Under the pieces are notes generated by a model. That model saw nothing but the letters and a program-made list of their open reading frames with translations, was not told the DNA's origin and made no database searches. Both the position numbers and the translations under genes were made by a program. This document shows positions 326 through 46,186 of a stretch of DNA of 46,186 nucleotides, one piece after another (position 1 is the first letter of the stretch; the number at the start of each line of letters is the position of its first letter). Source of the stretch: a virus. The DNA lies in the IMG/VR virus record IMGVR_UViG_3300027909_000035; one strand, given 5' to 3'.

Positions 326-357
326 AAATAAATAACCCTCCGGCCGGAACCGAAGGG
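326..357 (-). terminator. Rho-independent terminator (mirror of 45830..45861)
   Basis: Exact TIR mirror of the right-arm terminator. Confidence 0.5.
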
Positions 358-375
358 CTATCTAATTGGTTGCTG

Positions 376-600
376 TCAATCAGTGGCGTACTCGTCTCCG
401 GTCAGCTCCACACCCAAGGGTACCCATTCAACGCGGACGTGTTGGTTTGAGTCCTGCCAGCGAAATAGGGTGCTCAAAACCGTTTGCAGGTCAGGGTTTT
501 CGCCGAGAGAAGCTGTTCGGTCTATCCAGGGGTCGCCTGCCTTGGGGTCGGTGCCCCTCGACAGAATACGCCAGTCCCCTTGCCTACCAGGGATTACCAT
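376..600 (-). CDS. Hypothetical small protein (74 aa), TIR copy
   Basis: Exact mirror of 45587..45811 (+). Confidence 0.5.
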   Translation of the reverse strand: MVIPGRQGDWRILSRGTDPKAGDPWIDRTASLGENPDLQTVLSTLFRWQDSNQHVRVEWVPLGVELTGDEYATD

Positions 601-839
601 GGTTGCTCCCATACAGTCTTATAGATTGGTTCCTGCACTTTGCATGCGCCACAACGGTTTTCGGGTGTCTCATCGCGTACGGTAGTGGCGAATTCCTGCA
701 CCGCATCACACGCTGTCTGATAAAAAGCATCCCCGAACCCATACCCATCCACCACCAGGTGAGTGATTATAGGAGCGTCGGGGGGATTAATTGCCCCTCT
801 GCGCCAGGTGCCCTGTTCCATCGGCTTACTTTGTGGCAT
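594..839 (-). CDS. Small Cys-containing protein, GTWRR...RCxxC paralog B, TIR copy
   Basis: Exact mirror of 45348..45593 (+). Confidence 0.55.
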   Translation of the reverse strand: MPQSKPMEQGTWRRGAINPPDAPIITHLVVDGYGFGDAFYQTACDAVQEFATTVRDETPENRCGACKVQEPIYKTVWEQPW

Positions 840-1071
840 GCTTCCCACCGTCCTTAATCGCCTTGTAACAGCCAGGGCAACGCGGTGCGACGTCGTCCGG
901 CGTGGTGTCGTTGGTAATGAATTCCCTTCCACACTCAGCCAGCCAGGCTAGCCCGTCATTGAGGATGGCTCGGACCTTGTGAGCAACGTTGGCGGTGCCT
1001 GGTGCTGGTTTAAAGCAGGCTGTGAGCAGTCGTCGCCAGGTGCCCAACCGAACCCCATTCATTTCGACCAT
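826..1071 (-). CDS. Small Cys-containing protein, GTWRR...RCxxC paralog A, TIR copy
   Basis: Exact mirror of 45116..45361 (+). Confidence 0.55.
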   Translation of the reverse strand: MVEMNGVRLGTWRRLLTACFKPAPGTANVAHKVRAILNDGLAWLAECGREFITNDTTPDDVAPRCPGCYKAIKDGGKHATK

Positions 1072-1298
1072 CGTTTCCTCAGTCCCTCGATCTTCTCTCG
1101 ACCTTGCAGGATGTCTGAGCAGAGCCTGCACTTAACGGCAGCGTTTCCATTGTGTGGCAACAGATCTGCCCTCTCTGCCGATAGATGACTACAGATGGAT
1201 GTGTGCCAAGGCCCAGTGTGGTCAGCGGTAATCTCCATGTAGTGGGAAATGGTTTCCCGATTCGGTGACTGGTAACCGGCCTTGTACATCCACATCAT
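1059..1298 (-). CDS. Hypothetical small Cys/His-containing protein (79 aa), TIR copy
   Basis: Exact mirror of 44889..45128 (+). Confidence 0.5.
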   Translation of the reverse strand: MMWMYKAGYQSPNRETISHYMEITADHTGPWHTSICSHLSAERADLLPHNGNAAVKCRLCSDILQGREKIEGLRKRWSK

Positions 1299-1453
1299 TT
1301 TCTCCACAGCTTGAGGGCACTGGAGGTCAGCATGTAGACAGCCCAGCATTCCTCTTTCCCTCCCCATGAGTCGAGTGGGTAGGCTCCGGCAACTGCCGGT
1401 GAACCTAGAGCTTTCCGTTGTGCGGCAAGCTTTCTGGCCTCTGTCTGAGTCAT
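1295..1453 (-). CDS. Hypothetical small protein (52 aa), TIR copy
   Basis: Exact mirror of 44734..44892 (+). Confidence 0.4.
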   Translation of the reverse strand: MTQTEARKLAAQRKALGSPAVAGAYPLDSWGGKEECWAVYMLTSSALKLWRK

Positions 1454-1454
1454 A

Positions 1455-1691
1455 TCATTTCCTGCCCTCTGGCGTTGCCGTAGGAGCGGGTTGCCTGCCG
1501 GTCTGAAGCCCTGGTGAGGGTATGGGGCAGGTGTTCAGGTTAGGGTCTTCCGAGTAGCGGCATGTGGTGTGCTGAGGGGAGCGCTCGGGGTGCGCATCCC
1601 GTGGGATGGGACAACCGGCCAACAGCATGAGTAGCACCAGGGCAAAGGCGTAGGCCAGCAGGCGCAGCGTGAGATTGCATCGGAAACTCAT
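1455..1691 (-). CDS. Putative lipoprotein (78 aa), TIR copy
   Basis: Exact mirror of 44496..44732 (+). Confidence 0.6.
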   Translation of the reverse strand: MSFRCNLTLRLLAYAFALVLLMLLAGCPIPRDAHPERSPQHTTCRYSEDPNLNTCPIPSPGLQTGRQPAPTATPEGRK

Positions 1692-1840
1692 TTCTCTTCC
1701 TCCTGTTTGGCATAGCTGAGCGTGAGCACCTTTCCAGGGCACCATTTCCCCTGGTAGTAGTGCCGGTAGGGGTTGTAGACCTCAGTGCGACCGCAGTGGT
1801 TGCACCAAAAGATGTTGAGCGTGGCAGGCGGGACCCTCAC
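1688..1840 (-). CDS. Hypothetical zinc-ribbon-like mini-protein (50 aa), TIR copy
   Basis: Exact mirror of 44347..44499 (+). Confidence 0.35.
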   Translation of the reverse strand: MRVPPATLNIFWCNHCGRTEVYNPYRHYYQGKWCPGKVLTLSYAKQEEEK

Positions 1841-2031
1841 GACAGCTCGACCACCTTGTAAGCAACGGTACGGTTATCCATGCCTCGCGTGATGGATATT
1901 TCCTGCCGTATGGCGTCAACGGTCCTGTTGAGGGTCTGAGCGTCCGTGACCATCCCCTGAAACACCCAACCGTCCGGCAGGAACTCAGCAGCTCCACCTT
2001 TGAACTTGACGAACAATGCCCAGACTTTCAT
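1837..2031 (-). CDS. Hypothetical small protein (64 aa), first gene of the TIR operon, TIR copy
   Basis: Exact mirror of 44156..44350 (+); listed in the ORF track. Confidence 0.6.
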   Translation of the reverse strand: MKVWALFVKFKGGAAEFLPDGWVFQGMVTDAQTLNRTVDAIRQEISITRGMDNRTVAYKVVELS

Positions 2032-2071
2032 GTTGACCTCTTCCTCTGGAAACCTATTACAACCTAGTACC

Positions 2072-2101
2072 AGACTAGGTGACGTAGCTTATTCCTGTCA
2101 A
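2072..2101 (-). promoter_or_regulatory. Candidate sigma70-type promoter of the outward TIR operon (mirror)
   Basis: Mirror of 44086..44115 (TTGACA-N18-TAGTCT). Confidence 0.35.
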
Positions 2102-2357
2102 TGGATGATTGACCTAGTATTTCTGGGTGTCCAATGTGGACCCAGATTTTAATAGTTCGCCTCTGTGGGGGAGGAGCGAAACATCGAAGATCATCACTGG
2201 ACTTTTTCATTTAAGTTTATTTATTATTGCGCGCGTGATCTTGCACTAATAGTAAAGAGAATTAATTGTTGCTCCCAACGAAATAAATTGAGATATATAT
2301 CACAATATATATTAATCTAGCCGAATACATTTCGCAGAGTTGATCTTGGGGTGAGAT

Positions 2358-2491
2358 GGGTGTGCCAGGTGAGCACTTCCATATTGCTAGGGAACCAACG
2401 CATAGATGAGTATCAATTGTGTTTGTTTACCTCGTATCTAGCAGTTTGGTTTGCCTCACCTGGCGCACCCTCTCTCACCCCGATAGATGGT
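2358..2491. repeat. Long imperfect inverted repeat / 134-nt hairpin (mirror of 43696..43829)
   Basis: TIR mirror of the right-arm element. Confidence 0.6.
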
Positions 2492-2569
2492 CATCAATAA
2501 AATAGGGTATTAAAAATGAGGGTGCTCGAAATGAACACCCTCAAATTCATAACCGTCAAATTACCCCCG

Positions 2570-2651
2570 TCATTTTCTAATTCTTATGCCGCGCCAACCC
2601 TGATACCCGTGCCGGAGCGAGGCGGGTACGGGACGCTCAAGAGCGGGGACC
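2570..2651 (-). pseudogene. Orphan copy of the last 82 nt (27 codons plus stop) of the primase-helicase gene
   Basis: Mirror of 43536..43617, which is the 3' end of the intact 41320..43617 gene. The left arm has no gene body upstream of 2651. Confidence 0.85.
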
Positions 2652-26760: not shown

Positions 26761-26860
26761 GGGGAAGTAGCTCAGTGGTAGAGCAGATATGACCTGGTGC
26801 CCATATCGTCAAGGTTTTTGGGAAGGGACCTTGAGCTAGGTTCGATTCCTAGCTTCCCCA
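26761..26860 (+). tRNA. tRNA-like element with an aberrant, expanded anticodon/variable region (isotype undetermined)
   Basis: Perfect 7-bp acceptor stem GGGGAAG/CTTCCCC, D arm GCTC-AGTGGTA-GAGC, T arm CTAGG-TTCGATT-CCTAG, discriminator A. The 50 nt in between form two hairpins (GATATG/CATATC with a 10-nt loop; TCAAGGT/ACCTTGA with a 12-nt loop). Confidence 0.5.
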
Positions 26861-29817: not shown

Positions 29818-30528
29818 ATGGCGAAGACAAACCCCAAGGCAAGTAAAAAGCCGAAGCGTGACCCGAAACTCACTGCCCTGGCGGACAAGGAAGCCACTCA
29901 GTATCAGAAGTGGTTTGCCCGCTGGATCACTACGGAGGTTGGCTACGATCCAGCTTCGGCGGACTCGAAGAAGGCAGCCTTCCTGGCGGGTATCCGGTTG
30001 GCGCTCACGAGCCGGTCGGCCTTCATGGAAAGTGATTTCCTTGAGGAAATGCGGGAGAAGCACGGCGTTCAGAAGCGCGGTCCCAAGCCCAAGGCCAAGG
30101 ATGAGGACGACGCACCCAAGGGGAAGAAGTCGAAAAAGAAGAAGTCCAAGGATGAGGACGACGAAGAGGAAGACTTCGAAGAGGATGAGGACGAAGACTT
30201 CGAAGAGGATGATGAGGAAGAGGACGACGAAGACACAGAAGACGATGACGAGGAAGAGGACGAAGAGGAAGACGACGAAGACGAGGACGACGAAGAAGAA
30301 GAGGATGACGAGGAAGAGGACGACGAAGAGCCTGCCCCGCCTAAGAAATCCAAGGGAAAGAAGGCTGTAGCGAAGAAAGCTCCGGCCAAGAAACCCGCAA
30401 AGAAGGCTGACAAGCCTGTCAAGAAAGCCGCACCAGCAAAGAAGGCAACTTCCAAAGGGAAGAAGGCTGACACAGCCAAGAAAGGCAAGAAAAAGCCGAA
30501 GGAAGACGACGACGATTTCGTTTTCTGA
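29818..30528 (+). CDS. Poly-acidic / poly-lysine protein with an SSB-tip-like C-terminus (236 aa)
   Basis: AGGAGG RBS 10 nt upstream. A ~60-residue run of almost pure D/E (30151..30330) is flanked by K-rich segments (PAKK/AKKA repeats). The protein ends ...EDDDDFVF. Confidence 0.8.
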   Translation: MAKTNPKASKKPKRDPKLTALADKEATQYQKWFARWITTEVGYDPASADSKKAAFLAGIRLALTSRSAFMESDFLEEMREKHGVQKRGPKPKAKDEDDAPKGKKSKKKKSKDEDDEEEDFEEDEDEDFEEDDEEEDDEDTEDDDEEEDEEEDDEDEDDEEEEDDEEEDDEEPAPPKKSKGKKAVAKKAPAKKPAKKADKPVKKAAPAKKATSKGKKADTAKKGKKKPKEDDDDFVF

Positions 30529-33078: not shown

Positions 33079-33630
33079 GTGCCTACCGTGGACTGGGGAC
33101 TCTCTAAAGGAGTCATCGACGATTACGACCGGGAAAGCCAGTACAAGCCTTACACTGGCAAGCTTCCTGACAACGGCGTTTACCAATGGAAAGTCACCAA
33201 GGCGGTTTACGTCTCTGGTGGAAAGAAGAAGAACCCTCAATTGCGTGTGTCGCTGCGCCTTGACCCGCGTGACAAGTCGGAAAAGAAGTTTTCCGGATAC
33301 ACCATGATGAAGTTCATGGTCATTGCCGACACCACACCCTTTCAATATGTTCCCTTCCTTGACGCCGTTGGCGTTACTGAAGCCGACTTCAAGAAACGCA
33401 CCAAGACAGACCAGGAAGGTAACATCAGGCGCATCGGACCGTGGGTGAACGATGGCCAGACGCTCATTCTTGGTCAGCTCCAAGACAATCGGGGTGACAA
33501 CGCCGACAAGTACCCCAAGGAAATTGGGTGGGTCGGAGCGATCGATGATGCCGAAGAAGATGATGAGGAAGACTACGAAGAAGACGATGAGGAATCCGAA
33601 GACGATGACGAAGAAGAGGACGAAGACTGA
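33079..33630 (+). CDS. Putative ssDNA-binding protein (DUF669-like) with an acidic C-terminal tail
   Basis: GTG start after AAAGGA. The C-terminal ~40 residues are almost all D/E. Position is after the AAA_24-like ATPase. Confidence 0.55.
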   Translation: MPTVDWGLSKGVIDDYDRESQYKPYTGKLPDNGVYQWKVTKAVYVSGGKKKNPQLRVSLRLDPRDKSEKKFSGYTMMKFMVIADTTPFQYVPFLDAVGVTEADFKKRTKTDQEGNIRRIGPWVNDGQTLILGQLQDNRGDNADKYPKEIGWVGAIDDAEEDDEEDYEEDDEESEDDDEEEDED

Positions 33631-34534: not shown

Positions 34535-35085
34535 CGACATTCGAGCAGGGACAATGGGTCCGCCTACCTAGAACGTTGGGTTACGCAGAGGGGTACATAC
34601 GACTGGTTAGCCTTGCCGCGAACATGTGCAAGGTAGTGATTCCTGGTGCAGGTGAGCTGACCTGTGACACGGACAAGCTAACGCCGATCGAGGGTCCATC
34701 GGTTCCGGATGACGCACCACAGAAGAACCCTGACGCCAGTGAGCATCCAACCATCGAACGGCGCCCGGCGGAGGTTGACTTGGTGGTGACGTACATTCGC
34801 AACATCGAGACCGGTATCGATGTCTGCTGGTGCCCTTGGACACCCATGATGGTATCGGGACGGATGGGAAGGCTACGCACTGGCGAGCATCCCCAATGTC
34901 CGGCGCACACCAAAGAGGGATACCTGTTCAGTTTCATTGACCACGTACGGCAAGCCTTTTCGGGCAAGAAACTGATAGAGGGGAAGGGAACTGGTGCTTT
35001 GAAAGACTGGCTTGAGCAGAAAGGAGCGTTGATTGAGGAATACACGACTGAGGAAGGAAAGGCCAGTGTCCGATGGGTGGAATAG
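34531..35085 (+). CDS. Hypothetical protein (184 aa)
   Basis: ATGA overlap. Lies in track ORF 34516..35085. Confidence 0.6.
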   Translation: MTTFEQGQWVRLPRTLGYAEGYIRLVSLAANMCKVVIPGAGELTCDTDKLTPIEGPSVPDDAPQKNPDASEHPTIERRPAEVDLVVTYIRNIETGIDVCWCPWTPMMVSGRMGRLRTGEHPQCPAHTKEGYLFSFIDHVRQAFSGKKLIEGKGTGALKDWLEQKGALIEEYTTEEGKASVRWVE

Positions 35086-35669
35086 CGCTTAACGTTGACG
35101 ACGTTTACGACAGAATCCTACGGGACAAAGCGTTTTACCATTGGCAACCTGCCAAATTGGTTCCGGGGGAAGGGTCTGAAGCTAATGCTTCCGCCTTCAT
35201 CGTGGGCAGCTCACCAAGTGCGACAGACGTTGTGAATGGCAGACCGTTCACAGATGACATTGGGGCAATCCTCCGCCAGCTCATGGAGCTTGCCAACCTG
35301 CACAGTTATTTCAATGAAGGCAAGCAATACCGGCCGAACTGCTGGCTAACCCTGGTCAGCAAATACCGATCAAGCGGTATGCCATGGGAGGCAATAGAAC
35401 TATGGCGACCCTACCTCAGACAGGAGTGGTGCGCGGTAGACAACCCAATGGTGCTCATTCCCGTTGGCATGCTGGCATTCTCAGCGTGCATGGGTGAATG
35501 GCGGGACATATCAAAGTCAGCAGGATTTCCATTCAAGCGCATGACATTCTTTGGTTGGGTGTGGGTTTGGCCTATGTTCCATCCCAAAGACGGAATCAAA
35601 TTTCCGAAGCTCCGTCCAGTCATGGAAACACATTGGTCGAAGCTAGGTGAGTGGCTTGATAACCATTAA
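35073..35669 (+). CDS. Uracil-DNA-glycosylase-superfamily-like protein (family 4/5-like)
   Basis: FIVGSSPSATDVVNGRPFTDDIGAILRQLM resembles the UDG family 4 motif region (GE.PG...G.PF.G..G..L). Sits directly upstream of PolA, as in many phages. Confidence 0.55.
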   Translation: MGGIALNVDDVYDRILRDKAFYHWQPAKLVPGEGSEANASAFIVGSSPSATDVVNGRPFTDDIGAILRQLMELANLHSYFNEGKQYRPNCWLTLVSKYRSSGMPWEAIELWRPYLRQEWCAVDNPMVLIPVGMLAFSACMGEWRDISKSAGFPFKRMTFFGWVWVWPMFHPKDGIKFPKLRPVMETHWSKLGEWLDNH

Positions 35670-36825
35670 GGATACGCTACAGGGTGACCAAATCTATTTT
35701 CACTTTGTGGAGAACAAAGACGATGCCAAACGCGCTCTGCGTTGGGCGAAACGGTTCGTCGGGCAAGAACTGGGCATGGACACAGAATCAACAGGACTCG
35801 ACTGCTACCTACCCCATTGGAGGCTGCGAACCTTTCAGATTGGTAACGACATTCGAGCATTCGTCATTCCCGCCAAGTGGCGCAAGACAATTACAAATAT
35901 CTGGTCACTCGGCATCGACTGGATTGGATACAACGGACCGCATGACGTGCGTTGTGTAGACGCGTATCTCGGCTATGAGTCCGACGTGGTTTGCAAGTAC
36001 GAGGCTTACATCACAGCTCACCATCGCGAGCCACGAAAGGCGGAGGAAGGCGGCGCAGACCTTGGACTGAAAGAGCAATGCACAGCGCATATCGATCCAG
36101 CGGCCGGTAAGTGGGAAGTGGCGCTCAAGCTTGGCTTTAAGCAACTTACGGTGCCGATGCCAGGTGAGTATTACAAATCCGGACCTCGCAAGGGACAACC
36201 CAAGGTACGCAAGGCTTTGATATCTGAAGGCTGGGCAATGCAAGACATCAAGCACCCTACCTACATTGCCTACGCTGGTGCCGACCCCATACTCACATAT
36301 CGGCTCTGGCGCTTCAATGGGACCACCTACAGTCGTGCCAATGGTTTGTACGACAGGGATTTACAAATTGACTTGCTCTGTGACCGGTTGCAACGTCGGG
36401 GCATGCTCGTAGATGTGCGGTACCTTCAGCAATACCAAGCCGCACTCACGCGGCGTGCCGACCATCTGATAGAGCTGGCAGCTGTCTTGGGTTGCAATAA
36501 CATAAATTCCGGCCAACAAATTGCCGTAACCCTTTTAGAGCTAGGCGCCAAGCTGAGACTAAAAACCCCATCCGGCAAGTGGCAAATGGATAACACGGTT
36601 CTGGAAAGCTTGGCGGAAACGGGCAACCGTCCAGTGCGGAAGTTGGTCCGCTACATACTCACGGCTAGAAGGCTCAACAAACGCGCTCAGGTTTACGCAG
36701 AGGGGATGTTGAGGGCAAGGGATAGTCAGGGCAGGGTCCACCCGTCAATCAATTCTCTAGCGGCTAGAACGGGTCGCATGAGTGCCGGTATTTTCCAGCA
36801 ACTACCGACTAAGGATCAAGAGTGA
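35647..36825 (+). CDS. Family A DNA polymerase, N-terminal gene (3'-5' exonuclease plus thumb, up to the TGR(L/M)S...LP segment)
   Basis: Exo motifs DTESTGL, NGPHDVRC and YAGADPILTYRL. Ends ...HPSINSLAARTGRMSAGIFQQLPTKDQE-stop. Confidence 0.85.
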   Translation: MSGLITIKDTLQGDQIYFHFVENKDDAKRALRWAKRFVGQELGMDTESTGLDCYLPHWRLRTFQIGNDIRAFVIPAKWRKTITNIWSLGIDWIGYNGPHDVRCVDAYLGYESDVVCKYEAYITAHHREPRKAEEGGADLGLKEQCTAHIDPAAGKWEVALKLGFKQLTVPMPGEYYKSGPRKGQPKVRKALISEGWAMQDIKHPTYIAYAGADPILTYRLWRFNGTTYSRANGLYDRDLQIDLLCDRLQRRGMLVDVRYLQQYQAALTRRADHLIELAAVLGCNNINSGQQIAVTLLELGAKLRLKTPSGKWQMDNTVLESLAETGNRPVRKLVRYILTARRLNKRAQVYAEGMLRARDSQGRVHPSINSLAARTGRMSAGIFQQLPTKDQE

Positions 36826-36974
36826 TGGAGGAAGCTATAAGACTGCTCGAATCCCTGTTCATGACAATCAAAGCCGAGCATTGGAAGAACCCGAGAGGAC
36901 AGTTAGGCGTTCTGACGGGGATCAAGATGAGCATCATGGTACTGAAAATCGCACTATCGAAGAAAGGCCAGTGA
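36825..36974 (+). CDS. Hypothetical mini-protein (49 aa), cassette ORF 1
   Basis: Hand-translated MEEAIRLLESLF... TGATG overlap with the pol N-gene and ATGA-type overlap with the next ORF. Confidence 0.4.
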   Translation: MEEAIRLLESLFMTIKAEHWKNPRGQLGVLTGIKMSIMVLKIALSKKGQ

Positions 36975-37462
36975 TGGAAATAGGTTTCACAGGGTCAAGA
37001 CACGGAATGTCGGCTAGCGCACGCGCCAAGGTGCAGGCATTGTTCATGATCCATTGGACAATAAATAGTGCCAACACACTACGCCATGGCGATTGTACGG
37101 GAAGCGATGAGGAAGCCTTCAAGATAGCCAAAGCCCTTGGATTCCTTACATACGCTTACCCCGCCTCAAACGTTAGTGAGCGTTGGCTTGCCAAGACTAA
37201 AAGTGATCTAGTCATGGTCCCCTTGCCAGCATTGGAACGTAACACAATCATCGTCAGTGAAAGCACTATCCTTATTGCAACAGTTCAGGGTTTCACATCA
37301 AATCAAGCACAAATGCGTTCCGGCACGTGGGCAACCGTTCGATACGCGAAGAAGGAAGGAATACCTTTCTGGCTTGTCAATCCATTGGGACAAGCACAGT
37401 TCTACCCGATGGCCGAACATCGTCAAAGCCTAGGCATCACAAGCCTAAATTGGAATGACTGA
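36974..37462 (+). CDS. SLOG/DprA-like Rossmann-fold protein (DUF2493-like), cassette ORF 2 (162 aa)
   Basis: GFTGSRHG...LRHGDCTGSDEEAFKIAKALG...RSGTWATVRYAKKEGIPFWLV matches the SLOG-type pattern (GxR, G..G.D, SxGT...A...G.P). Confidence 0.55.
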   Translation: MEIGFTGSRHGMSASARAKVQALFMIHWTINSANTLRHGDCTGSDEEAFKIAKALGFLTYAYPASNVSERWLAKTKSDLVMVPLPALERNTIIVSESTILIATVQGFTSNQAQMRSGTWATVRYAKKEGIPFWLVNPLGQAQFYPMAEHRQSLGITSLNWND

Positions 37463-37463
37463 A

Positions 37464-37622
37464 ATGGTTCTAGCTAGTAAAGAGAAGCGATTGGCGCGAA
37501 TCCTCATGGCACACCTAGAAATCGCTTACGTCCATGCTTTGCGCTTGCTGAGGGAAGGCAAGTATGAAGTGAGCGACGACGGGAAAGTAACGAAGGTGAA
37601 AGATGATGACGAAGATGATTGA
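37464..37622 (+). CDS. Hypothetical mini-protein (52 aa), cassette ORF 3
   Basis: Hand-translated MVLASKEKRLARILMAHLEI... Starts 1 nt after the preceding stop. Confidence 0.35.
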   Translation: MVLASKEKRLARILMAHLEIAYVHALRLLREGKYEVSDDGKVTKVKDDDEDD

Positions 37623-37749
37623 CATCAAACTGTGCCGTGATCCTGCACTAGTAGTTGGATGGTGTTTGCGTTTGAAAACACGAACACATGAATACTTCCT
37701 CTGGCGCAACGGTTGGAAGCTAAAGATGGAGGTTTGGAGGAATGATTGA
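37615..37749 (+). CDS. Hypothetical mini-protein (44 aa), cassette ORF 4
   Basis: Hand-translated MIDIKLCRDPALVVGWCLRL... Overlaps both neighbours. Confidence 0.3.
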   Translation: MIDIKLCRDPALVVGWCLRLKTRTHEYFLWRNGWKLKMEVWRND

Positions 37750-38119
37750 ATTCATTCCAGAGGATGGTGAGCCAATTGATCTCAGTAAGTTCAGTTGGTC
37801 ATTGACTGACCCCAAGTACAGTGATGAAGCTAGAGAGAAGCTAGGCGGATTGCAGGATGCGAGCTTCACACTGGACGGGATCCTCAGTGAGCGTGTCGCA
37901 CGGATATCCGACACAGGGTACTTCGCCAAGAGTCGACCTACTTCCTACTATGAGAGGTTTCGCCGTTACCAGAATCGCGTAGATGAAATGCGTCATCTTG
38001 AAGTGCTCATGCTGGCAATGGGCAGGATGTCTCGAATGAATTTCTTCCAGCAACTGGACCCAAACACCAGAATACAAATCGCACTCTTCCATTCCTACAA
38101 CCGCGCTTGCATGAACTGA
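37742..38119 (+). CDS. Hypothetical protein (125 aa), cassette ORF 5
   Basis: ORF track. GGAGG RBS. Confidence 0.6.
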   Translation: MIEFIPEDGEPIDLSKFSWSLTDPKYSDEAREKLGGLQDASFTLDGILSERVARISDTGYFAKSRPTSYYERFRRYQNRVDEMRHLEVLMLAMGRMSRMNFFQQLDPNTRIQIALFHSYNRACMN

Positions 38120-38132
38120 GGGGGGAAATGAA

Positions 38133-38249
38133 ATGAGATTGCATATCTGGCGATGGCTGTTTCGCTGCATTGATTGCGGCGAAAGATGCTGCCCCGTTAT
38201 GCGATACGGGAATCCAGAGCTAGATCACAAAGGTTGGTATGACAAGTGA
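38133..38249 (+). CDS. Cys-rich mini-protein (38 aa), cassette ORF 6
   Basis: Hand-translated MRLHIWRWLFRCIDCGERCCPV... GGGGGAAA lies upstream. Confidence 0.3.
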   Translation: MRLHIWRWLFRCIDCGERCCPVMRYGNPELDHKGWYDK

Positions 38250-38428
38250 AGCTGAAACTAGAGCTATGTGCAGGCGTTGACTGGCGTGACGTTAGAGTCA
38301 CCTCTGACCCTTCACTGCTGATCTACTGTAACCATCTGTGGTTTGACACTACCGGGTTCATACACCTTTGCTCGGACTATAAAGAGCACCCTAGAGAGCA
38401 CATATGCCAATGCTGTGAGCAATCATGA
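38246..38428 (+). CDS. Cys/His-rich small protein (60 aa), cassette ORF 7
   Basis: ORF track (GTG start overlapping the preceding TGA). Its stop overlaps the ATG of the pol C-gene. Confidence 0.45.
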   Translation: MKLKLELCAGVDWRDVRVTSDPSLLIYCNHLWFDTTGFIHLCSDYKEHPREHICQCCEQS

Positions 38429-39273
38429 AACTCCTTTCCAGTGCGGCAGTCAGGCGAGCCATCGTCGCAGAGGTTGGTCACGCCATCATCTCGTGTGACT
38501 ATGACCAAATTGAATTGCGTGTGGCAGCCGCTTTGGCAAGGGAGCAAGCACTTATAGAAGCGGCTGAGCGCGGGGAGTCTCTTCACAAGATTGCAGCCGT
38601 AAAACTCTTCGGAGAGGATTACACGCCAGACCAGTACCGCTATACCAAAAATGTCAACTTCGGTTGGCTCTATGGAGGCGGGGCATTCACGCTCTCACAG
38701 CAGGCGGGTATTCCCTTTGAAGTGGCTCAAGAAATCATCGTGCAATACCGCGAAGAATTCCCCGCGCTCACAAGGTACAAGCGCCAGCAGCAAGACAAGC
38801 TGATTCGCGGTGCACTGACCCCAAACGAATACAGGCTTTACCGCTCACTACGTTCAGAGATGTTCGAATACCGGCAAGACACTCCGTCAGGCAGGTTGGC
38901 AATAGCCAAGGTGCGGCACCGCATTAACAACCTGATGGAGTGGAAAGTCGGTTACATCACAACGGATTACGGCCGTAGGTTGCCGGTCGAATTGATGAAG
39001 GCTTACAGGGTCGTGAACTACGAAATACAGTCCACAGCAAGGGATATCATGTGTGATGGGCTGATCGCTGTCATGGCCGATCCTGAGCTAGCGTCAACCG
39101 TTCTACTTCCCATCCACGATGAATTGCTAGGCCAGGCTCCAAGGTGGAAAGCCAAGCGCGTTGCCAGACGGTACGGCGAGGTTATGAGCACCCAATTCCG
39201 AGGCGTGCCGATTACGGCTAGCGGCAAAGTGTACGGCGACTCTTGGGGACATGGATACATGAGGGCAGCATGA
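38425..39273 (+). CDS. Family A DNA polymerase, C-terminal gene (palm/fingers, motifs A, B, C)
   Basis: Motif A at SCDYDQIELRVAA, motif B at RYTKNVNFGWLYGGG, VNYEIQSTARD, motif C at LPIHDELL. Confidence 0.9.
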   Translation: MKLLSSAAVRRAIVAEVGHAIISCDYDQIELRVAAALAREQALIEAAERGESLHKIAAVKLFGEDYTPDQYRYTKNVNFGWLYGGGAFTLSQQAGIPFEVAQEIIVQYREEFPALTRYKRQQQDKLIRGALTPNEYRLYRSLRSEMFEYRQDTPSGRLAIAKVRHRINNLMEWKVGYITTDYGRRLPVELMKAYRVVNYEIQSTARDIMCDGLIAVMADPELASTVLLPIHDELLGQAPRWKAKRVARRYGEVMSTQFRGVPITASGKVYGDSWGHGYMRAA

Positions 39274-39308: not shown

Positions 39309-39584
39309 ATGACCTGTAAGCGAATCGCGGTAATCGTCACTAGTGATATGGGAATTGTGTTTAAGGATCCCAACGTCTCCCTGCTACACCCGGTGACTCA
39401 GACCCACGAGTGTTCAGGGCTTCACACCACCATTGCAGGACTGATCATACACCATTGTGAGTGCGGGACAACGTTCTACGTCCTAGGCGAAGCACTGAAC
39501 AAGCTTGTGGTTATGTCACCCGACCTCGCTGCCCTCATTTCAAAGGCAATCAAGGATGGCAAGGGTGACGAGCCGAAAGAATGA
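39309..39584 (+). CDS. Hypothetical protein (91 aa)
   Basis: ORF track. GGAG RBS. Confidence 0.55.
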   Translation: MTCKRIAVIVTSDMGIVFKDPNVSLLHPVTQTHECSGLHTTIAGLIIHHCECGTTFYVLGEALNKLVVMSPDLAALISKAIKDGKGDEPKE

Positions 39585-40188
39585 GTTGCATGTAATCGCT
39601 TTTGATCCTGGTGGAGTCATGGGATGGGCTCACTTTGTTGTGCACATCCGTGCGTTCAGTCACCCACGAGAGAAGGTGCTGAGCAACCTTCTAGGATGGC
39701 GCTGTGGCGAGTTTGAGGGCACAGAGCATGACAAGGTGAGGGCAGCACTGGATATGATCCGTAAAAGCCGCTACAGGAACGGGAAGCTGTTCACAGCAAG
39801 ATACGAGATAGTCACTGAGGACTTCGACCTGACACAGCTTATCGGCGGTAAGGATTTGCTGATACCGACTCGACTGAACGCAATTCTGGAATATCAATTA
39901 GCGGTAGGGTTTCAACTACCGTTGGCCTATCAAAATCGTGCTCTTCGAACGGGTGTCACCAAGCCTAGGCTCAAACGAATGAAACTATGGCCGGTACGGG
40001 GCAAAGATGCCTATGCAGCGGTACAGCATGGTGTTACCTACCTGAAGCGACTGAAACAGAGGGCGGACGAAGTCACATGGGAAAAGCTAATACAGCTAAA
40101 CGAAAAGCGGCCATTACTAGAAAAGCAACTGAAGCCCCAACGGAAGCAACGGACACTCCCATATATGCAGGGCTTGTCATTGAGCTAG
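39556..40188 (+). CDS. RuvC-like Holliday junction resolvase
   Basis: LHVIAFDPGGVMGWAHF is the N-terminal catalytic Asp motif of phage RuvC-like resolvases; EDFD lies later. ATG 39556 lies within track ORF 39505..40188. Confidence 0.65.
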   Translation: MARVTSRKNELHVIAFDPGGVMGWAHFVVHIRAFSHPREKVLSNLLGWRCGEFEGTEHDKVRAALDMIRKSRYRNGKLFTARYEIVTEDFDLTQLIGGKDLLIPTRLNAILEYQLAVGFQLPLAYQNRALRTGVTKPRLKRMKLWPVRGKDAYAAVQHGVTYLKRLKQRADEVTWEKLIQLNEKRPLLEKQLKPQRKQRTLPYMQGLSLS

Positions 40189-41319: not shown

Positions 41320-43617
41320 TTGCCTAGGTCCGGAGGATTCCTCTACAGCTCTTCAGTTTTTTCGAAAGGATGTGCTCTCACCGTGGGCGGCCAGAATAGC
41401 ACGAGCAGCCAACACGACCAAATCTCGCCTTGGCACTTAGCCGCTGAGGATTACCTTTCTGCTGGATACATGCCGTTTCCCCTGCCCCTTGGGCGGAAGT
41501 CACCTCCACCTAAGAACGTGACCGGAGGTATCGAACACAATTTCGAACAGCATACACAGTTGGTTGCCGGATGGTTACAGGATGATGAACCGAGAAACAT
41601 CGGGATCGTGATTCCTTCCAACATGGTCGTACTCGATGTGGATGGGGCTGAGGCAGAGAAACGGCTTACCGACTACCTTGGTGACATCCCGACCACATGG
41701 GCAAGCTCAAGCGGACGCGAGAACCGGTATCACCTCTGGTACCAAACACCGAACGATCGAACATGGCCAGGGAAAATTGTTGCTGGCGTCGATGTACTGC
41801 AACACCATCATCGTTACCTGGTGGTACCGCCTAGCGTGCACCCTTCCGGCAAGCTGTATCGATTTCTGAGCCCACGTAAAAGCGTGGCCTGGCACATCCC
41901 CACCCTTGAGGAATTAAACATCGTCAGCAACCGTCTCCTACGGGAAACCAGACGGGGCAAATTCGTTCCATACGAGCGCGCTCAACTGGATACCCGGTTA
42001 TGGCTGACTGAACACGGTAAGGGGAAGCTGTGCCCTGAGCTAAGGCGGGTAGTGTCCCAACACCAACGGCTTTTGAGGAAACATGCTGCACTGGGCGGAA
42101 TGCATGACGCCATGACAAACGGTGTGTGGGCAATCCTGGCTGAAATTTCCCATGGCCACCTTGGCGGGTACCAAGCTCTCAAGCGCTTCAAGGAAACCTT
42201 CCTAGAGCAGGCTGCCGAAACCGGCCGTAGGTCCGGCTACGAATCAAAGGCTGAGTGGGGTAGGGCATGCGTTGGTGCCATTGAAAAAACCGCAATCGAG
42301 CGGGTACGGATCGGTGACCCTTGCCTGATCGAGGAAGAGGAAAGAGATAAAGACCCTGACCGATTCTTTGACGGCAAGCACGGCATCAAAGCTATTTCGC
42401 TGCAAAGGGCAGTGGAGCGCACAGGCAGGCTAGAGCCTGGTCCGGGCAAAGCTATTTACCGGCACTATGACGGTGTGTGGTCACCGGACGGTGAGTCTGA
42501 GATTTACCGTAGGGTTCAAAAACTTTTGAAGGAACGTGCTCGACCTAACCACGCGACCATGGTGAAAACCTTTGTAGAGCATAGGGAACCGTTCATCACC
42601 GATGAGCGAGAGGACACCCGTTACCTCAACCTACCCAATGGTCTATTGGACTGGCGCACAGGGAGACTTGAGCCACACAACGCCAATATCGTTACCACCA
42701 TTAGGATTCCGGTTGCTTGGGATGAGGACGCTGAGTGCCCCTTGATCCTAGATTGGCTGAGGGATGTATTCGCTTATGACGCAACAGAATTTGCTCTCGA
42801 AGTATTGGGATACATGTTATACAACGCTAATCCCTTGCACAAAGCCATATTGCTTTACGGCACTGGACGAAATGGAAAATCGACCTTCCTCAAACTCGCT
42901 ACAATGCTTGCCGGACATAACAATGTGTCTGCCGTTACACCCCAAGCAATCGATGATAATAGATTCGCTGCTGCCCAGATACACGGAAAGCTTGCAAATC
43001 TGGCCGGGGACGTCGATCCTCGTATCTTCAAGTCAACGGAACGCTTTAAACAACTTACTGGGGGAGATTGGATGATGGTCGAGCATAAAAACCGTGACCC
43101 GTTTACGTTTGTGTGCCGTGCCCTCATGATTGCTTCCTTCAATGCCTTGCCTCGCACGGCGGACACCACAGACGCTTTCTTCTCACGCTGGCTGGTGCTG
43201 CCCTTCCCCAAGACGTTCACAAATCCCGACATCCACCTTATTCACAGATTGGCACCCGAGATACCAGGGTTGCTGAGAATGGCGGTAGAGCGGCTGAAGA
43301 ACGTCATTGAGCGCGGTCATTTCGTCTTGCCGGTAACCGTGAAGGAAGCCACGGATAGGTTCCGTGCCGAGGCTGACCCGTTGCGAGCGTTCATAGCCGA
43401 AAGAATAGAGTGGACTGGCTTACCCGAATTCATTTCTAGGAATGACGTCTACGCCGAATATGCAATGTGGGCAGCGCAGAATGGGTTCTCTGCAATGTCG
43501 TCCATGCGCTTTTATGAGGCTGTTGGCCACACTTTGGTCCCCGCTCTTGAGCGTCCCGTACCCGCCTCGCTCCGGCACGGGTATCAGGGTTGGCGCGGCA
43601 TAAGAATTAGAAAATGA
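41320..43617 (+). CDS. Bifunctional primase-polymerase (Prim-Pol) / D5-P4-type SF3 helicase
   Basis: N-terminal Prim-Pol motifs (VVLDVDG, YHLWYQ, LVVPPSVHPSGKLYRF) and C-terminal Walker A GTGRNGKST. The start is uncertain (41320 is TTG; an in-frame GTG lies at 41383). The last 82 nt lie inside TIR-R. Confidence 0.85.
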   Translation: MPRSGGFLYSSSVFSKGCALTVGGQNSTSSQHDQISPWHLAAEDYLSAGYMPFPLPLGRKSPPPKNVTGGIEHNFEQHTQLVAGWLQDDEPRNIGIVIPSNMVVLDVDGAEAEKRLTDYLGDIPTTWASSSGRENRYHLWYQTPNDRTWPGKIVAGVDVLQHHHRYLVVPPSVHPSGKLYRFLSPRKSVAWHIPTLEELNIVSNRLLRETRRGKFVPYERAQLDTRLWLTEHGKGKLCPELRRVVSQHQRLLRKHAALGGMHDAMTNGVWAILAEISHGHLGGYQALKRFKETFLEQAAETGRRSGYESKAEWGRACVGAIEKTAIERVRIGDPCLIEEEERDKDPDRFFDGKHGIKAISLQRAVERTGRLEPGPGKAIYRHYDGVWSPDGESEIYRRVQKLLKERARPNHATMVKTFVEHREPFITDEREDTRYLNLPNGLLDWRTGRLEPHNANIVTTIRIPVAWDEDAECPLILDWLRDVFAYDATEFALEVLGYMLYNANPLHKAILLYGTGRNGKSTFLKLATMLAGHNNVSAVTPQAIDDNRFAAAQIHGKLANLAGDVDPRIFKSTERFKQLTGGDWMMVEHKNRDPFTFVCRALMIASFNALPRTADTTDAFFSRWLVLPFPKTFTNPDIHLIHRLAPEIPGLLRMAVERLKNVIERGHFVLPVTVKEATDRFRAEADPLRAFIAERIEWTGLPEFISRNDVYAEYAMWAAQNGFSAMSSMRFYEAVGHTLVPALERPVPASLRHGYQGWRGIRIRK

Positions 43618-43695
43618 CGGGGGTAATTTGACGGTTATGAATTTGAGGGTGTTCATTTCGAGCACCCTCATTTTTAATACCCTATTTTATTGATG

Positions 43696-43829
43696 ACCAT
43701 CTATCGGGGTGAGAGAGGGTGCGCCAGGTGAGGCAAACCAAACTGCTAGATACGAGGTAAACAAACACAATTGATACTCATCTATGCGTTGGTTCCCTAG
43801 CAATATGGAAGTGCTCACCTGGCACACCC
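43696..43829. repeat. Long imperfect inverted repeat / 134-nt hairpin
   Basis: GGGGTGAGAGAGGGTGCGCCAGGTGAG (43696..43722) against CTCACCTGGCACACCCATCTCACCCC (43804..43829): 24 pairs, 2 mismatches and 1 unpaired base. Further pairing is possible inside the 81-nt spacer (AACCAA/TTGGTT). Confidence 0.6.
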
Positions 43830-44085
43830 ATCTCACCCCAAGATCAACTCTGCGAAATGTATTCGGCTAGATTAATATATATTGTGATATATATCTCAAT
43901 TTATTTCGTTGGGAGCAACAATTAATTCTCTTTACTATTAGTGCAAGATCACGCGCGCAATAATAAATAAACTTAAATGAAAAAGTCCAGTGATGATCTT
44001 CGATGTTTCGCTCCTCCCCCACAGAGGCGAACTATTAAAATCTGGGTCCACATTGGACACCCAGAAATACTAGGTCAATCATCCA

Positions 44086-44115
44086 TTGACAGGAATAAGC
44101 TACGTCACCTAGTCT
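44086..44115 (+). promoter_or_regulatory. Candidate promoter of the outward TIR operon
   Basis: TTGACA (44086..44091) - 18 nt - TAGTCT (44110..44115). Bracketed by TACTAGGT at 44068..44075 and 44118..44125. Confidence 0.35.
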
Positions 44116-44155
44116 GGTACTAGGTTGTAATAGGTTTCCAGAGGAAGAGGTCAAC

Positions 44156-44350
44156 ATGAAAGTCTGGGCATTGTTCGTCAAGTTCAAAGGTGGAGCTGCT
44201 GAGTTCCTGCCGGACGGTTGGGTGTTTCAGGGGATGGTCACGGACGCTCAGACCCTCAACAGGACCGTTGACGCCATACGGCAGGAAATATCCATCACGC
44301 GAGGCATGGATAACCGTACCGTTGCTTACAAGGTGGTCGAGCTGTCGTGA
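44156..44350 (+). CDS. Hypothetical small protein (64 aa)
   Basis: ORF track. GAGGAAGAGG RBS. Confidence 0.6.
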   Translation: MKVWALFVKFKGGAAEFLPDGWVFQGMVTDAQTLNRTVDAIRQEISITRGMDNRTVAYKVVELS

Positions 44351-44499
44351 GGGTCCCGCCTGCCACGCTCAACATCTTTTGGTGCAACCACTGCGGTCGC
44401 ACTGAGGTCTACAACCCCTACCGGCACTACTACCAGGGGAAATGGTGCCCTGGAAAGGTGCTCACGCTCAGCTATGCCAAACAGGAGGAAGAGAAATGA
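44347..44499 (+). CDS. Zinc-ribbon-like mini-protein (50 aa)
   Basis: GTG start overlapping the preceding TGA. Contains WCNHCGRTEVYNP...KWCPG. Its stop overlaps the next ATG. Confidence 0.35.
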   Translation: MRVPPATLNIFWCNHCGRTEVYNPYRHYYQGKWCPGKVLTLSYAKQEEEK

Positions 44500-44732
44500 G
44501 TTTCCGATGCAATCTCACGCTGCGCCTGCTGGCCTACGCCTTTGCCCTGGTGCTACTCATGCTGTTGGCCGGTTGTCCCATCCCACGGGATGCGCACCCC
44601 GAGCGCTCCCCTCAGCACACCACATGCCGCTACTCGGAAGACCCTAACCTGAACACCTGCCCCATACCCTCACCAGGGCTTCAGACCGGCAGGCAACCCG
44701 CTCCTACGGCAACGCCAGAGGGCAGGAAATGA
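44496..44732 (+). CDS. Putative lipoprotein (78 aa)
   Basis: AGGAGG RBS. Signal peptide with lipobox: MSFRCNLTLRLLAYAFALVLLMLLAGC. Lies in track ORF 44442..44732. Confidence 0.6.
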   Translation: MSFRCNLTLRLLAYAFALVLLMLLAGCPIPRDAHPERSPQHTTCRYSEDPNLNTCPIPSPGLQTGRQPAPTATPEGRK

Positions 44733-44733
44733 T

Positions 44734-44892
44734 ATGACTCAGACAGAGGCCAGAAAGCTTGCCGCACAACGGAAAGCTCTAGGTTCACCGGCAGTTGCCG
44801 GAGCCTACCCACTCGACTCATGGGGAGGGAAAGAGGAATGCTGGGCTGTCTACATGCTGACCTCCAGTGCCCTCAAGCTGTGGAGAAAATGA
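44734..44892 (+). CDS. Hypothetical small protein (52 aa)
   Basis: Hand-translated MTQTEARKLAAQRKALG... Starts 1 nt after the preceding stop; its stop overlaps the next ATG. Confidence 0.4.
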   Translation: MTQTEARKLAAQRKALGSPAVAGAYPLDSWGGKEECWAVYMLTSSALKLWRK

Positions 44893-45128
44893 TGTGGATG
44901 TACAAGGCCGGTTACCAGTCACCGAATCGGGAAACCATTTCCCACTACATGGAGATTACCGCTGACCACACTGGGCCTTGGCACACATCCATCTGTAGTC
45001 ATCTATCGGCAGAGAGGGCAGATCTGTTGCCACACAATGGAAACGCTGCCGTTAAGTGCAGGCTCTGCTCAGACATCCTGCAAGGTCGAGAGAAGATCGA
45101 GGGACTGAGGAAACGATGGTCGAAATGA
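44889..45128 (+). CDS. Hypothetical Cys/His-containing protein (79 aa)
   Basis: ATGA overlap start within track ORF 44820..45128. Contains ...SICSH...KCRLCSD... Confidence 0.5.
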   Translation: MMWMYKAGYQSPNRETISHYMEITADHTGPWHTSICSHLSAERADLLPHNGNAAVKCRLCSDILQGREKIEGLRKRWSK

Positions 45129-45361
45129 ATGGGGTTCGGTTGGGCACCTGGCGACGACTGCTCACAGCCTGCTTTAAACCAGCACCAGGCACCGCCAACG
45201 TTGCTCACAAGGTCCGAGCCATCCTCAATGACGGGCTAGCCTGGCTGGCTGAGTGTGGAAGGGAATTCATTACCAACGACACCACGCCGGACGACGTCGC
45301 ACCGCGTTGCCCTGGCTGTTACAAGGCGATTAAGGACGGTGGGAAGCATGCCACAAAGTAA
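45116..45361 (+). CDS. Small protein, GTWRR...RCPGC (paralog A, 81 aa)
   Basis: Start within track ORF 45056..45361. Shares GTWRR, (E/Q)EF.T, TP(D/E) and RCxxC with the next gene. Confidence 0.55.
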   Translation: MVEMNGVRLGTWRRLLTACFKPAPGTANVAHKVRAILNDGLAWLAECGREFITNDTTPDDVAPRCPGCYKAIKDGGKHATK

Positions 45362-45593
45362 GCCGATGGAACAGGGCACCTGGCGCAGAGGGGCAATTAA
45401 TCCCCCCGACGCTCCTATAATCACTCACCTGGTGGTGGATGGGTATGGGTTCGGGGATGCTTTTTATCAGACAGCGTGTGATGCGGTGCAGGAATTCGCC
45501 ACTACCGTACGCGATGAGACACCCGAAAACCGTTGTGGCGCATGCAAAGTGCAGGAACCAATCTATAAGACTGTATGGGAGCAACCATGGTAA
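45348..45593 (+). CDS. Small protein, GTWRR...RCGAC (paralog B, 81 aa)
   Basis: Start within track ORF 45255..45593. Tandem paralog of 45116..45361. Confidence 0.55.
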   Translation: MPQSKPMEQGTWRRGAINPPDAPIITHLVVDGYGFGDAFYQTACDAVQEFATTVRDETPENRCGACKVQEPIYKTVWEQPW

Positions 45594-45811
45594 TCCCTGG
45601 TAGGCAAGGGGACTGGCGTATTCTGTCGAGGGGCACCGACCCCAAGGCAGGCGACCCCTGGATAGACCGAACAGCTTCTCTCGGCGAAAACCCTGACCTG
45701 CAAACGGTTTTGAGCACCCTATTTCGCTGGCAGGACTCAAACCAACACGTCCGCGTTGAATGGGTACCCTTGGGTGTGGAGCTGACCGGAGACGAGTACG
45801 CCACTGATTGA
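45587..45811 (+). CDS. Hypothetical small protein (74 aa)
   Basis: GGGAG RBS. ATG 45587 within track ORF 45575..45811. Last gene before the terminus. Confidence 0.5.
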   Translation: MVIPGRQGDWRILSRGTDPKAGDPWIDRTASLGENPDLQTVLSTLFRWQDSNQHVRVEWVPLGVELTGDEYATD

Positions 45812-45829
45812 CAGCAACCAATTAGATAG

Positions 45830-45861
45830 CCCTTCGGTTCCGGCCGGAGGGTTATTTATTT
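45830..45861 (+). terminator. Rho-independent terminator of the TIR operon
   Basis: CCCTTCGG/CCGGAGGG stem followed by TTATTTATTT. Confidence 0.55.
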
Positions 45862-46186
45862 GTGTGAGAATTATCACAATAATTAATTCGACTGTCCACT
45901 TTAGACCGCGACTACTCAGTGTGACATTACTCAGAGTAAATGGAATAATATTCTTTAGTTTATGCATAAAACTAACTCTGTTTACCAAAAAGTAAGGGTT
46001 CTTTACAATGCTTCCAGGCATTTGACCAGGGAAAATAGGCCGCGATGGATGCACGCCGAGTTAGTTTAGAGCAACAATTAATTGCCTTAACTAATACTCC
46101 ACGAATAAAAATGCAATAGTAAACAGACTTTACAATACGCAGAGTGACTGTCCGATTTGGACCAATCAGCTAAGAATCTTGAAAAT

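Follow-up and report, generated by a model that had tools for sequence, protein, structure and literature searches.

A family A DNA polymerase encoded by two genes

The window analyzed here is a 46,186-nt stretch of viral DNA (IMG/VR record IMGVR_UViG_3300027909_000035) from an uncultured tailed phage, whose family A DNA polymerase (PolA) is encoded as two genes, polN and polC, broken just before catalytic motif A. The two genes are separated by a 1,599-nt gap holding a cassette of seven + strand open reading frames (ORFs) of 49/50, 162, 55, 48, 125, 38, and 60 aa (Table 1). The Pfam DNA_pol_A profile (PF00476) is divided between the two products, with positions 3–133 of 381 matched in polN (E = 3e-13) and positions 139–381 matched in polC (E = 1e-40). 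The polN product ends in ...GIFQQLPTKDQE-TGA and contains putative exonuclease motifs (Exo I, DxE, as DTE at 45–47; Exo II, NxxxD, as N96...D100; and Exo III, YxxxD, as Y209...D213) that are conserved across two alignments, its match to Pfam DNA_pol_A_exo1 lying below the cutoff (16.8 versus 23.6 bits). The polC product begins with MKLLSSAAVRRAIVAEVGHAIISCDYDQIELRV and supplies the motif A aspartate as Asp25 within DYDQIELR. Across 41 aligned polC homologues, the catalytic residues of DYDQIELR, RYTKNVNFGWLYG, and HDE are invariant, and the N-terminal MKLLS is conserved, with L3 and L4 invariant. polN and polC are two halves of one Klenow-like PolA.

To locate the cut, we compared both products with single-chain enzymes. 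Residues 240–391 of polN align with Klenow chain residues 209–361, and residues 8–122 of polC align with Klenow chain residues 365–482, a near-continuous pair of alignments indicating that nothing is missing at the break; polC aligns with both Klentaq and Klenow from the first residue past it. Contiguous relatives read ...PPLQQLPSGDWK|IRRA... at the junction, and the window reads ...FQQLPTKDQE-stop followed by the start of polC, MKLLSSAAVRRA.... The polN product ends 5 residues past motif 2 and polC starts 8 residues ahead of the conserved (I/V)RR, the new termini add ~8 residues in total relative to contiguous relatives, and the two ORFs, each with its own stop and start, jointly equal one contiguous homologue. 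The cut site is a 4–5-residue surface linker between motif 2 (QQLP) and the beta-strand bearing the motif A aspartate. An earlier sequence-only reading of the window had given the coordinates and terminal sequences of polN and polC as they appear in the ORF listing and had described a break in a short linker with no motif lost, as the Klenow alignments and the contiguous junctions now bear out.

We modeled the joined polN and polC sequences with AlphaFold on an alignment of 56 contiguous homologues, obtaining a predicted local distance difference test (pLDDT) score of 95.6 and a predicted template modeling (TM) score of 0.92. The junction (residues ~384–393) is coil, with a block pLDDT of 83 between flanking blocks of at least 96. 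Foldseek aligned the joined model over its whole length with Klenow, Bst, and Klentaq (1kfs, 1xwl, and 1ktq) at TM scores of 0.64–0.77 over ~670–700 columns. Single-sequence AlphaFold of the joined halves, made without homologues, gave a pLDDT of 33.

The split is neither an assembly error nor the mark of a pseudogene. Three independent assemblies from different samples (ENA ERZ27257771, JGI 3300006845, and ENA ERZ27257739) are 99.85–100% identical to the window over the polN stop, the cassette, and polC, reproducing the stop and cassette that the sequence-only reading had flagged as potential assembly errors, and an identical polC protein occurs on seven contigs. The retained halves are under purifying selection, with ratios of nonsynonymous to synonymous substitution rates (dN/dS) of 0.07–0.16 overall and, against related locus L002, of 0.096 for polN and 0.074 for polC, figures that are rough because dS is near saturation. 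The window itself is a complete tailed-phage genome, with genes for terminase, portal, HK97-type capsid, SNF2 helicase, PD-(D/E)XK nuclease, and PrimPol-D5 helicase.

Table 1. Genes of the split polymerase locus and its upstream neighbor, in window coordinates
Feature	Coordinates	Strand	Description
UDG-superfamily gene	35073..35669	+	Pfam PF03167 UDG, E = 1.4e-11; overlaps polN by 23 nt
polN	35647..36825	+	392 aa; putative 3'-5' exonuclease, thumb, motif 2 (ARTGRMSAGIFQQLP); short acidic tail TKDQE-stop
Cassette ORF 1	36825..36974	+	49 aa from ATG 36825, or 50 aa from GTG 36822; start overlaps polN stop (TGATG)
Cassette ORF 2	36974..37462	+	162 aa; SLOG-like (YAcAr/DUF2493-type)
Cassette ORF 3	37455..37622	+	55 aa; acidic C-terminus
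Cassette ORF 4	37603..37749	+	48 aa; unsupported
Cassette ORF 5	37742..38119	+	125 aa; ORFan; strong GGAGG ribosome-binding site
Cassette ORF 6	38133..38249	+	38 aa; Cys-rich mini-protein (CxxC...CC)
Cassette ORF 7	38246..38428	+	60 aa; Cys/His-rich mini-protein; stop overlaps polC start (ATGA)
polC	38425..39273	+	282 aa; motif A (DYDQIELR, Asp25), motif B (RYTKNVNFGWLYG), motif C (HDE 231-233)

The split is fixed in an uncultured phage clade

Aligning the PolA loci of relatives, as the sequence-only reading had suggested, we found that all 14 related loci (polC 55–79% identical) are split at the same residue, with gaps of 157–1,977 nt whose gene content varies, and that PolA is a single in-frame gene at ~75 loci further away (≤42% identity), those of D29-like actinophage PolAs and prophages. 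Among 5.8 billion proteins, the best 120 polC homologues are all 259–318 aa long; in an exhaustive search of 50%-identity representatives, the whole window clade collapses to one representative. A megablast of the region against 50,697 phage records gave no match, and neither did a single-protein scan of IMG/VR; a profile scan of IMG/VR did find relatives. The best cultured relatives are PolAs of Arthrobacter and Mycobacterium phages, at only 27–38% identity. Many "C-terminal" matches of ~230–300 aa begin MS(I/V)SxPPLQ at the conserved Met of motif 2, and these we treated as truncated gene calls rather than as further splits.

The nearest contiguous form, P0121 (665 aa, 55% identical), has the junction QQLPIGEHLIRSC and lies in a syntenic PDDEXK-AAA_24-UDG-PolA module. 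The same junction is cut in two further groups of loci. At L109 (protein P0126), polN ends in ...QQMPTIDQEGTE and a stop, followed by six ORFs and a polC that starts MDSLLGPASIRT; at L111 and L112 (P0127), polN ends in ...QQLPSKKSSGLNMEEQEEVQ and a stop, followed by one 77-aa ORF and a polC that starts VSEGLSGGALIRR. In a neighbor-joining (NJ) tree of 590 columns from both halves, the window clade, L109, P0121, P0122, and L086 form a group with 100% bootstrap support, within which the window clade and L109 are joined at 71%, and L111 falls outside this group. Monophyly of all split forms was recovered in 0 of 300 bootstraps of this tree, and we therefore claim only L111 as an independent fission. 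An NJ tree of the C half conflicts with this arrangement, placing contiguous P0121 beside the window clade (89%) and L109 outside, a discordance that may stem from recombination between the halves. We conclude from these sequence comparisons that this residue appears to have been cut in at least two independent fissions, or else that re-fusions took place.

The window PolA appears to be a lineage of its own with possible kinship to the D29-like subfamily, which is cluster 9 in the scheme of Czernecki et al. 2023 and comprises PolAs of Actinomycetia phages. In the NJ tree of both halves, the 100% group of the window clade, L109, P0121, P0122, and L086 stands apart. As judged by these alignments, the split is shown to be real, evolutionarily fixed, and common to a large uncultured phage clade whose closest outgroups are contiguous.

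The gap carries a variable cassette of small genes

The sequence-only reading had described seven same-strand, tightly coupled ORFs in the 1,599 bp between the halves, and the ORF listing agrees, with successive stop-to-start distances from polN through polC of −1, −1, −8, −20, −8, +13, −4, and −4 nt. Such tight overlaps are typical of the whole replication module (UDG to polN, for example, at −23 nt) and are therefore a mark of the operon rather than of the cassette. No promoter-like or + strand terminator-like site rose above chance (shuffled background) in 35.6–39.3 kb, and this, together with the overlaps, fits the operon that had been deduced from the coupling, a coupling now seen to be shared by the entire module. 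The GC content of the cassette, 48.6%, is the lowest of any 1.6-kb segment in the unique region of the genome (52.6 ± 1.4%).

For five of the seven ORFs (those of 50, 162, 55, 38, and 60 aa), relatives carry homologues in the corresponding gap (E from 2e-8 to 2e-36), and searches of Pfam, PHROGs, and NCBIfam returned nothing usable for six of the seven. ORF 1, which matches no family in these three collections, has homologues in the gaps of L001, L006, L008, and L010 (E from 2e-9 to 7e-5). ORF 3 is 80% identical to L002:5074-5217 (E = 4e-24), with a dN/dS of 0.044 against L002, and gives a sub-threshold Pfam match to NUMOD4 (E = 0.015; 15.9 bits versus a cutoff of 23.4). The two Cys-rich mini-proteins noticed in the sequence-only reading are ORFs 6 and 7, both with homologues in relatives' gaps: ORF 6 is 74% identical to L001:5709-5825 (E = 4e-24), with related ORFs in L003 and L005, and ORF 7 is 40% identical to L002:5828-6004 (E = 3e-14). 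Of the remaining two ORFs, ORF 5 matched only itself in a search of 5.8 billion proteins and is called as a gene in independent assemblies, and ORF 4, with no homologue in related gaps, no Pfam, PHROGs, or NCBIfam match, and no call by the gene callers of the source assemblies, is possibly not a gene.

The SLOG-fold assignment that the sequence-only reading had made for ORF 2 is plausible but weak. This ORF is 45% identical to L001:5215-5712 (E = 2e-36) and matches phrog_289 (E = 4.9e-6) in the same stretch of the profile as L013:6630-7004 does (E = 1e-27); BLASTP relates it to the same L013 ORF at E = 0.002. One relative's cassette ORF, probably L013:6630-7004, matches PF10686 (YAcAr) at 8e-15. 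ORF 2 has no Pfam match of its own.

Gap gene content varies among relatives, with 1–7 inserted ORFs and no single family present in all gaps, and the cassette families are nearly confined to this site: 50 tblastn matches fall inside gaps and 1 outside. The commonest family among relatives, a helix-rich (HeH-like) protein of ~75 aa, occurs in 9 of 14 relatives and is absent from the window; the one Rho_N match among relatives' cassette ORFs probably belongs to it. Cys-rich mini-proteins lie just upstream of polC in the window and in L001–L006, and their distribution across loci is nearly complementary to that of the helix-rich family. The independently split L109 and L111 carry cargo unrelated to that of the window clade. 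The gap thus has the signature of a fast-turnover accessory-gene site between two highly conserved sequences, to judge by this distribution; the "landing pad" of the sequence-only reading fits, the split site being fixed, the cargo variable, and the cargo families confined to the gap.

Some observations on individual gaps stand apart. The sole match outside a gap is a YAcAr/SLOG gene, L010:4726-5058, just upstream of polN. In about half of the loci of the split clade, a small CxxC ORF directly precedes polC (L004:5844-6020, L006:6748-6999, L003:5759-6004, and L005:5424-5537), and in most of the others the gap is taken up by the ~75-aa helix-rich family. L004 had been a candidate for an "empty" split site, which we rejected on finding its 157-nt gap filled by an uncalled 58-aa CxxC...CxxC ORF.

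A two-subunit polymerase and its alternatives

We consider it very probable that the locus encodes a genuine, evolutionarily fixed "genes-in-pieces" family A polymerase, that is, a two-subunit enzyme accompanied by cargo genes. Purifying selection on both halves and the confident Klenow-like joined model argue for the two-subunit form. In this scheme, polN (exonuclease, thumb, and the first part of the palm) and polC (the remaining palm and the fingers) would be translated separately from one operon and would assemble non-covalently into a Klenow-like heterodimer with an active site drawn from both chains; because palm and active site would be built from both chains, the halves would have to associate. 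The gap would behave as a permissive intergenic site of an early/replication operon, collecting small, co-transcribed, translationally coupled, and probably accessory genes. This cargo (the SLOG-like protein, the Cys-rich mini-proteins, and the ORFans) would turn over quickly and would probably be swapped among relatives by homologous recombination, for which the conserved polymerase halves on either side would provide the arms. Foreign DNA that inserted at the cut site probably brought about the original fission, leaving no recognizable remnant today.

Several points weigh against this proposal. The three-dimensional model represents an artificially fused chain rather than a complex of two, and for this enzyme we infer the two polypeptides, their association, and their activity. 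Exchange of cargo through recombination arms is deduced from gene distribution. The agent of the original fission is not identifiable in any gap, and the Rfam scan described below covers described intron families only. Finally, the cassette proteins have no assigned function and may yet have a role at the polymerase.

This last possibility can be stated as an explanation of its own, in which one or more cassette proteins are functional polymerase partners (a bridging, zinc-binding, or DNA-binding processivity subunit) and the locus is a multi-subunit replicase operon rather than a carrier of unrelated cargo. The confinement of the cassette families to the gap would suit such a role, as would the position of the Cys-rich mini-proteins just ahead of polC and their near-complementarity with the ~75-aa helix-rich family; the split PolB of PhiKZ, moreover, recruits an extra processivity subunit (PMC13648687). 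However, no family is common to all gaps, the cargo of the independently split L109 and L111 is unrelated, and contiguous relatives do without cassette genes, and we regard a partner function as unlikely.

We also considered that the insert is a self-splicing group I or II intron with ORFs, its removal restoring one PolA frame. PolA genes in SPO1-like and T7-like phages can contain group I introns, according to work cited in PMC10580990, and the authors of that study raised the same possibility for the split polymerase of MEP401. When we carried out the intron scan proposed in the sequence-only reading, no Rfam family, group I and II introns included, matched at E ≤ 10 in 36500–38700 of the window, and no intron reached the gathering score in 12 related loci. 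The cassette ORFs overlap both the polN stop and the polC start, and polC has its own conserved start and N-terminus (MKLLS). Gap length varies between 157 and 1,977 nt, the contents are unrelated, and an ORF fills the shortest gap. To join the exons, splicing would also have to remove exactly the stop and ~8 additional codons, which are conserved in their own right. Splicing at the RNA level is thus highly improbable. Nor did we see signs of an element that leaves the DNA precisely: a search for direct repeats flanking the cassette found only short chance matches, an 11-nt match between polN (FQQL) and the 125-aa ORF being at chance expectation.

Joining of the halves after translation by a split intein has next to no likelihood. 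The DnaE of cyanobacteria and the PolB of Nanoarchaeum are joined in this way. Metagenomes, too, contain "fractured genes" with split inteins (PMC2677866), but the termini of polN and polC offer no space for an N-intein of ~100 aa or a C-intein of ~35 aa. We looked for intein/Hint blocks flanking the break, which would add at least ~130 residues, and found none; an intein, already discounted in the sequence-only reading, is excluded because only ~8 residues are added at the new termini, with no Pfam Hint or intein domain. That reading had likewise seen no LAGLIDADG, GIY-YIG, or clear HNH motif, and domain searches agree: HNH, GIY-YIG, and LAGLIDADG domains are absent from the window's seven ORFs (Pfam, PHROGs, and NCBIfam) and from 30 cassette ORFs of relatives, the sub-threshold NUMOD4 match being the sole trace, and no homing endonuclease is recognizable in the 17 gaps examined. 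A stop followed by 1.6 kb of unrelated ORFs in an essential enzyme does resemble damage, but a broken gene, whether a pseudogene in a defective phage or a misassembled stop and insert, is refuted by the three independent assemblies, the same split in 14 of 14 relatives and 120 of 120 best homologues, the strong purifying selection on polN and polC, and the complete phage genome, with its terminase, portal, and capsid genes, around them.

Relation to known split polymerases

The two-subunit polymerase proposed here is a further example of known split phage polymerases, in a different PolA lineage and with a slightly different cut site. The sequence-only reading was right that two-gene PolAs exist but made too little of the precedent: PolA and PolB genes that are split, with ORFs in between, are already in the literature, and the novelty is modest for that reason. 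A comparable cut occurs in MEP401-type (Zobellviridae-related) OM43 phages, whose PolA is spread over ORF13 and ORF15, which flank a small ORF14 (Microbiol Spectr 2023, PMC10580990; OP830906). In record OP830906, gp13 ends in ...NLQNFDGEIKTLFLSRYGE and a stop (another excerpt of its C-terminus reads ...TGRLSSSSPNLQNFDGEIKTLFLSRYGE and a stop), and gp15 starts MILNADAKALEW. As in the window, the cut falls within the polymerase domain shortly before motif A, the N gene combines an exonuclease (putative in the window) with the start of DNA_pol_A and leaves the remainder to the C gene, an unrelated small ORF lies between the halves, and the split is kept in most relatives. By contrast, the MEP401-type enzymes belong to another PolA subfamily and phage family, have their cut ~15 residues nearer the C-terminus, immediately ahead of the motif A strand, and contain one inserted ORF (78 aa) versus 1–7 variable ORFs in the window clade.

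LUZ24-like Pseudomonas phages (Bruynoghevirus) encode a "DNA polymerase part I" and "part II" (PMC3890496). Here too a two-gene PolA encloses ~2 kb, occupied by ~10 small hypothetical ORFs on the same strand, and of the known systems this one comes nearest to a multi-gene cassette. The LUZ24-like cut, however, separates the exonuclease domain from the polymerase domain rather than dividing the latter, part I (171 aa) comprising the exonuclease only and part II having 546 aa. In S-SBP1-like and related T7-like cyanophages, the exonuclease and polymerase domains are likewise in two genes (Czernecki et al. 2023, PMC10201439; bioRxiv 10.1101/325100). As in the window, PolA fission is fixed in a phage clade, and the halves are expected from prediction to come together again with their new termini exposed to solvent; unlike in the window, the split follows the domain boundary, arises by a 1-nt frameshift, and leaves overlapping genes with no cassette. 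The 2023 PolA reclassification describes only such exonuclease/polymerase domain-boundary splits and calls them the first in PolAs (PMC10201439).

Splits within the catalytic core are known from family B. In the T4-related phages 25 and 44RR, gp43A and gp43B co-purify and are active (PMC2988022), and the PhiKZ PolB, split in the palm into DNAP-N and DNAP-C, forms a stable 1:1 complex solved by cryo-electron microscopy (PMC13648687). These enzymes resemble the window's in being cut within the catalytic core, with association or activity demonstrated by experiment there and inferred for the window. They differ in family (B, not A) and in having no variable multi-gene cassette: the PhiKZ genes are distant from each other, and the gap in phages 25 and 44RR is an untranslated spacer or a seg homing-endonuclease gene. 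A model for the fission itself is Aeh1 nrdA, split by mobE into "genes-in-pieces" (Friedrich et al. 2007, as cited in PMC2988022), where, by that account, foreign DNA inserted in a conserved enzyme gene and the two polypeptides reassemble into an active enzyme. The homing endonuclease gene is, by the same account, still present in Aeh1, unlike in the gaps examined here.

Among splits inside the polymerase domain, the cargo of the window clade is the largest and most variable described so far, and the cut site has apparently been hit more than once. A tentative extension, which we think possible but doubtful, is that the linker between motif 2 and motif A is a recurrent fission hotspot, cut in the window clade (probably together with L109), in L111/L112, and ~15 residues away in MEP401-type phages, and that the gap is a protected cargo bay with guaranteed expression and homology arms. 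A cargo bay in an essential, conserved operon would, if true, explain why the cassette families are confined to the gap and turn over fast. Bolder still would be the suggestion that the Cys-rich and HeH-like mini-proteins have been recruited as accessory subunits of the polymerase.

The split polymerase reveals no new mechanism. What it adds is a large uncultured clade, of at least 120 protein clusters at 90% identity, with PolA split inside its catalytic domain, and a comparative system in which close contiguous relatives (P0121) stand beside at least one separate fission at this residue and naturally occurring variants with 1–7 inserted genes. This raises the questions of how a single-chain polymerase tolerates a cut beside its active site and why such cuts persist. 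Gene callers and surveys that use PolA as a marker gene would see truncated fragments unless the two-gene form is recognized.

Genome context

The UDG-superfamily gene upstream of polN keeps this position in L002, L003, L004, L005, and L110, and the order UDG to PolA is found in split and contiguous relatives alike. The PolA of N4-like and SPO1-like phages carries a family 4 UDG domain fused to its N-terminus (PMC10201439). With UDG and PolA paired here as separate genes, the replicase may in effect be in three pieces. The motifs of the window UDG look divergent (GSSPS instead of GEAPG), and its activity is putative.

Just downstream of polC lies a 211-aa ORF (39553–40188, + strand) whose N-terminal VIAFDPGG looks, by eye, like the catalytic motif that comes first in RuvC-type resolvases. 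The ORF matches phrog_1981 alone (E = 3e-24, unknown function) and nothing in Pfam. This terminase-encoding tailed-phage genome also has perfect inverted terminal repeats of 2,651 nt (window 1–2651 and 43536–46186), the right arm starting 81 nt before the stop of the PrimPol-D5 helicase gene (41320–43617). An independent k141 assembly, L105, corresponds to window 2511–43676, that is, to the unique region plus 141 nt into each arm, the extent expected if the inverted terminal repeats are a true repeat. The relative IMGVR_UViG_3300019884_000003 (41,130 nt; polC 62% identical) has perfect terminal inverted repeats of 1,121 nt; in both phages the repeats start inside the 3' end of the primase-helicase gene, and the contigs of several other relatives end at homologous points inside this gene. 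One might speculate that UDG, the PrimPol-D5 helicase, the RuvC-like motif, and the long inverted terminal repeats loosely recall poxvirus-type replication.

Elsewhere in the window, a tRNA-like gene at 26761–26860 (+ strand) scores 47 bits against the Rfam tRNA model, with perfect acceptor, D, and T arms and 46 nt in place of a 17-nt anticodon arm; ARAGORN called no tRNA in the entire window. The gene may represent a tRNA that combines an unusual anticodon loop with a long variable arm, or else a tRNA carrying a short insertion. GAN repeats, forming runs of Asp/Glu codons, occur at 30127–30356 and 33526–33629 in + strand ORFs of the replication module, giving them very acidic tails.

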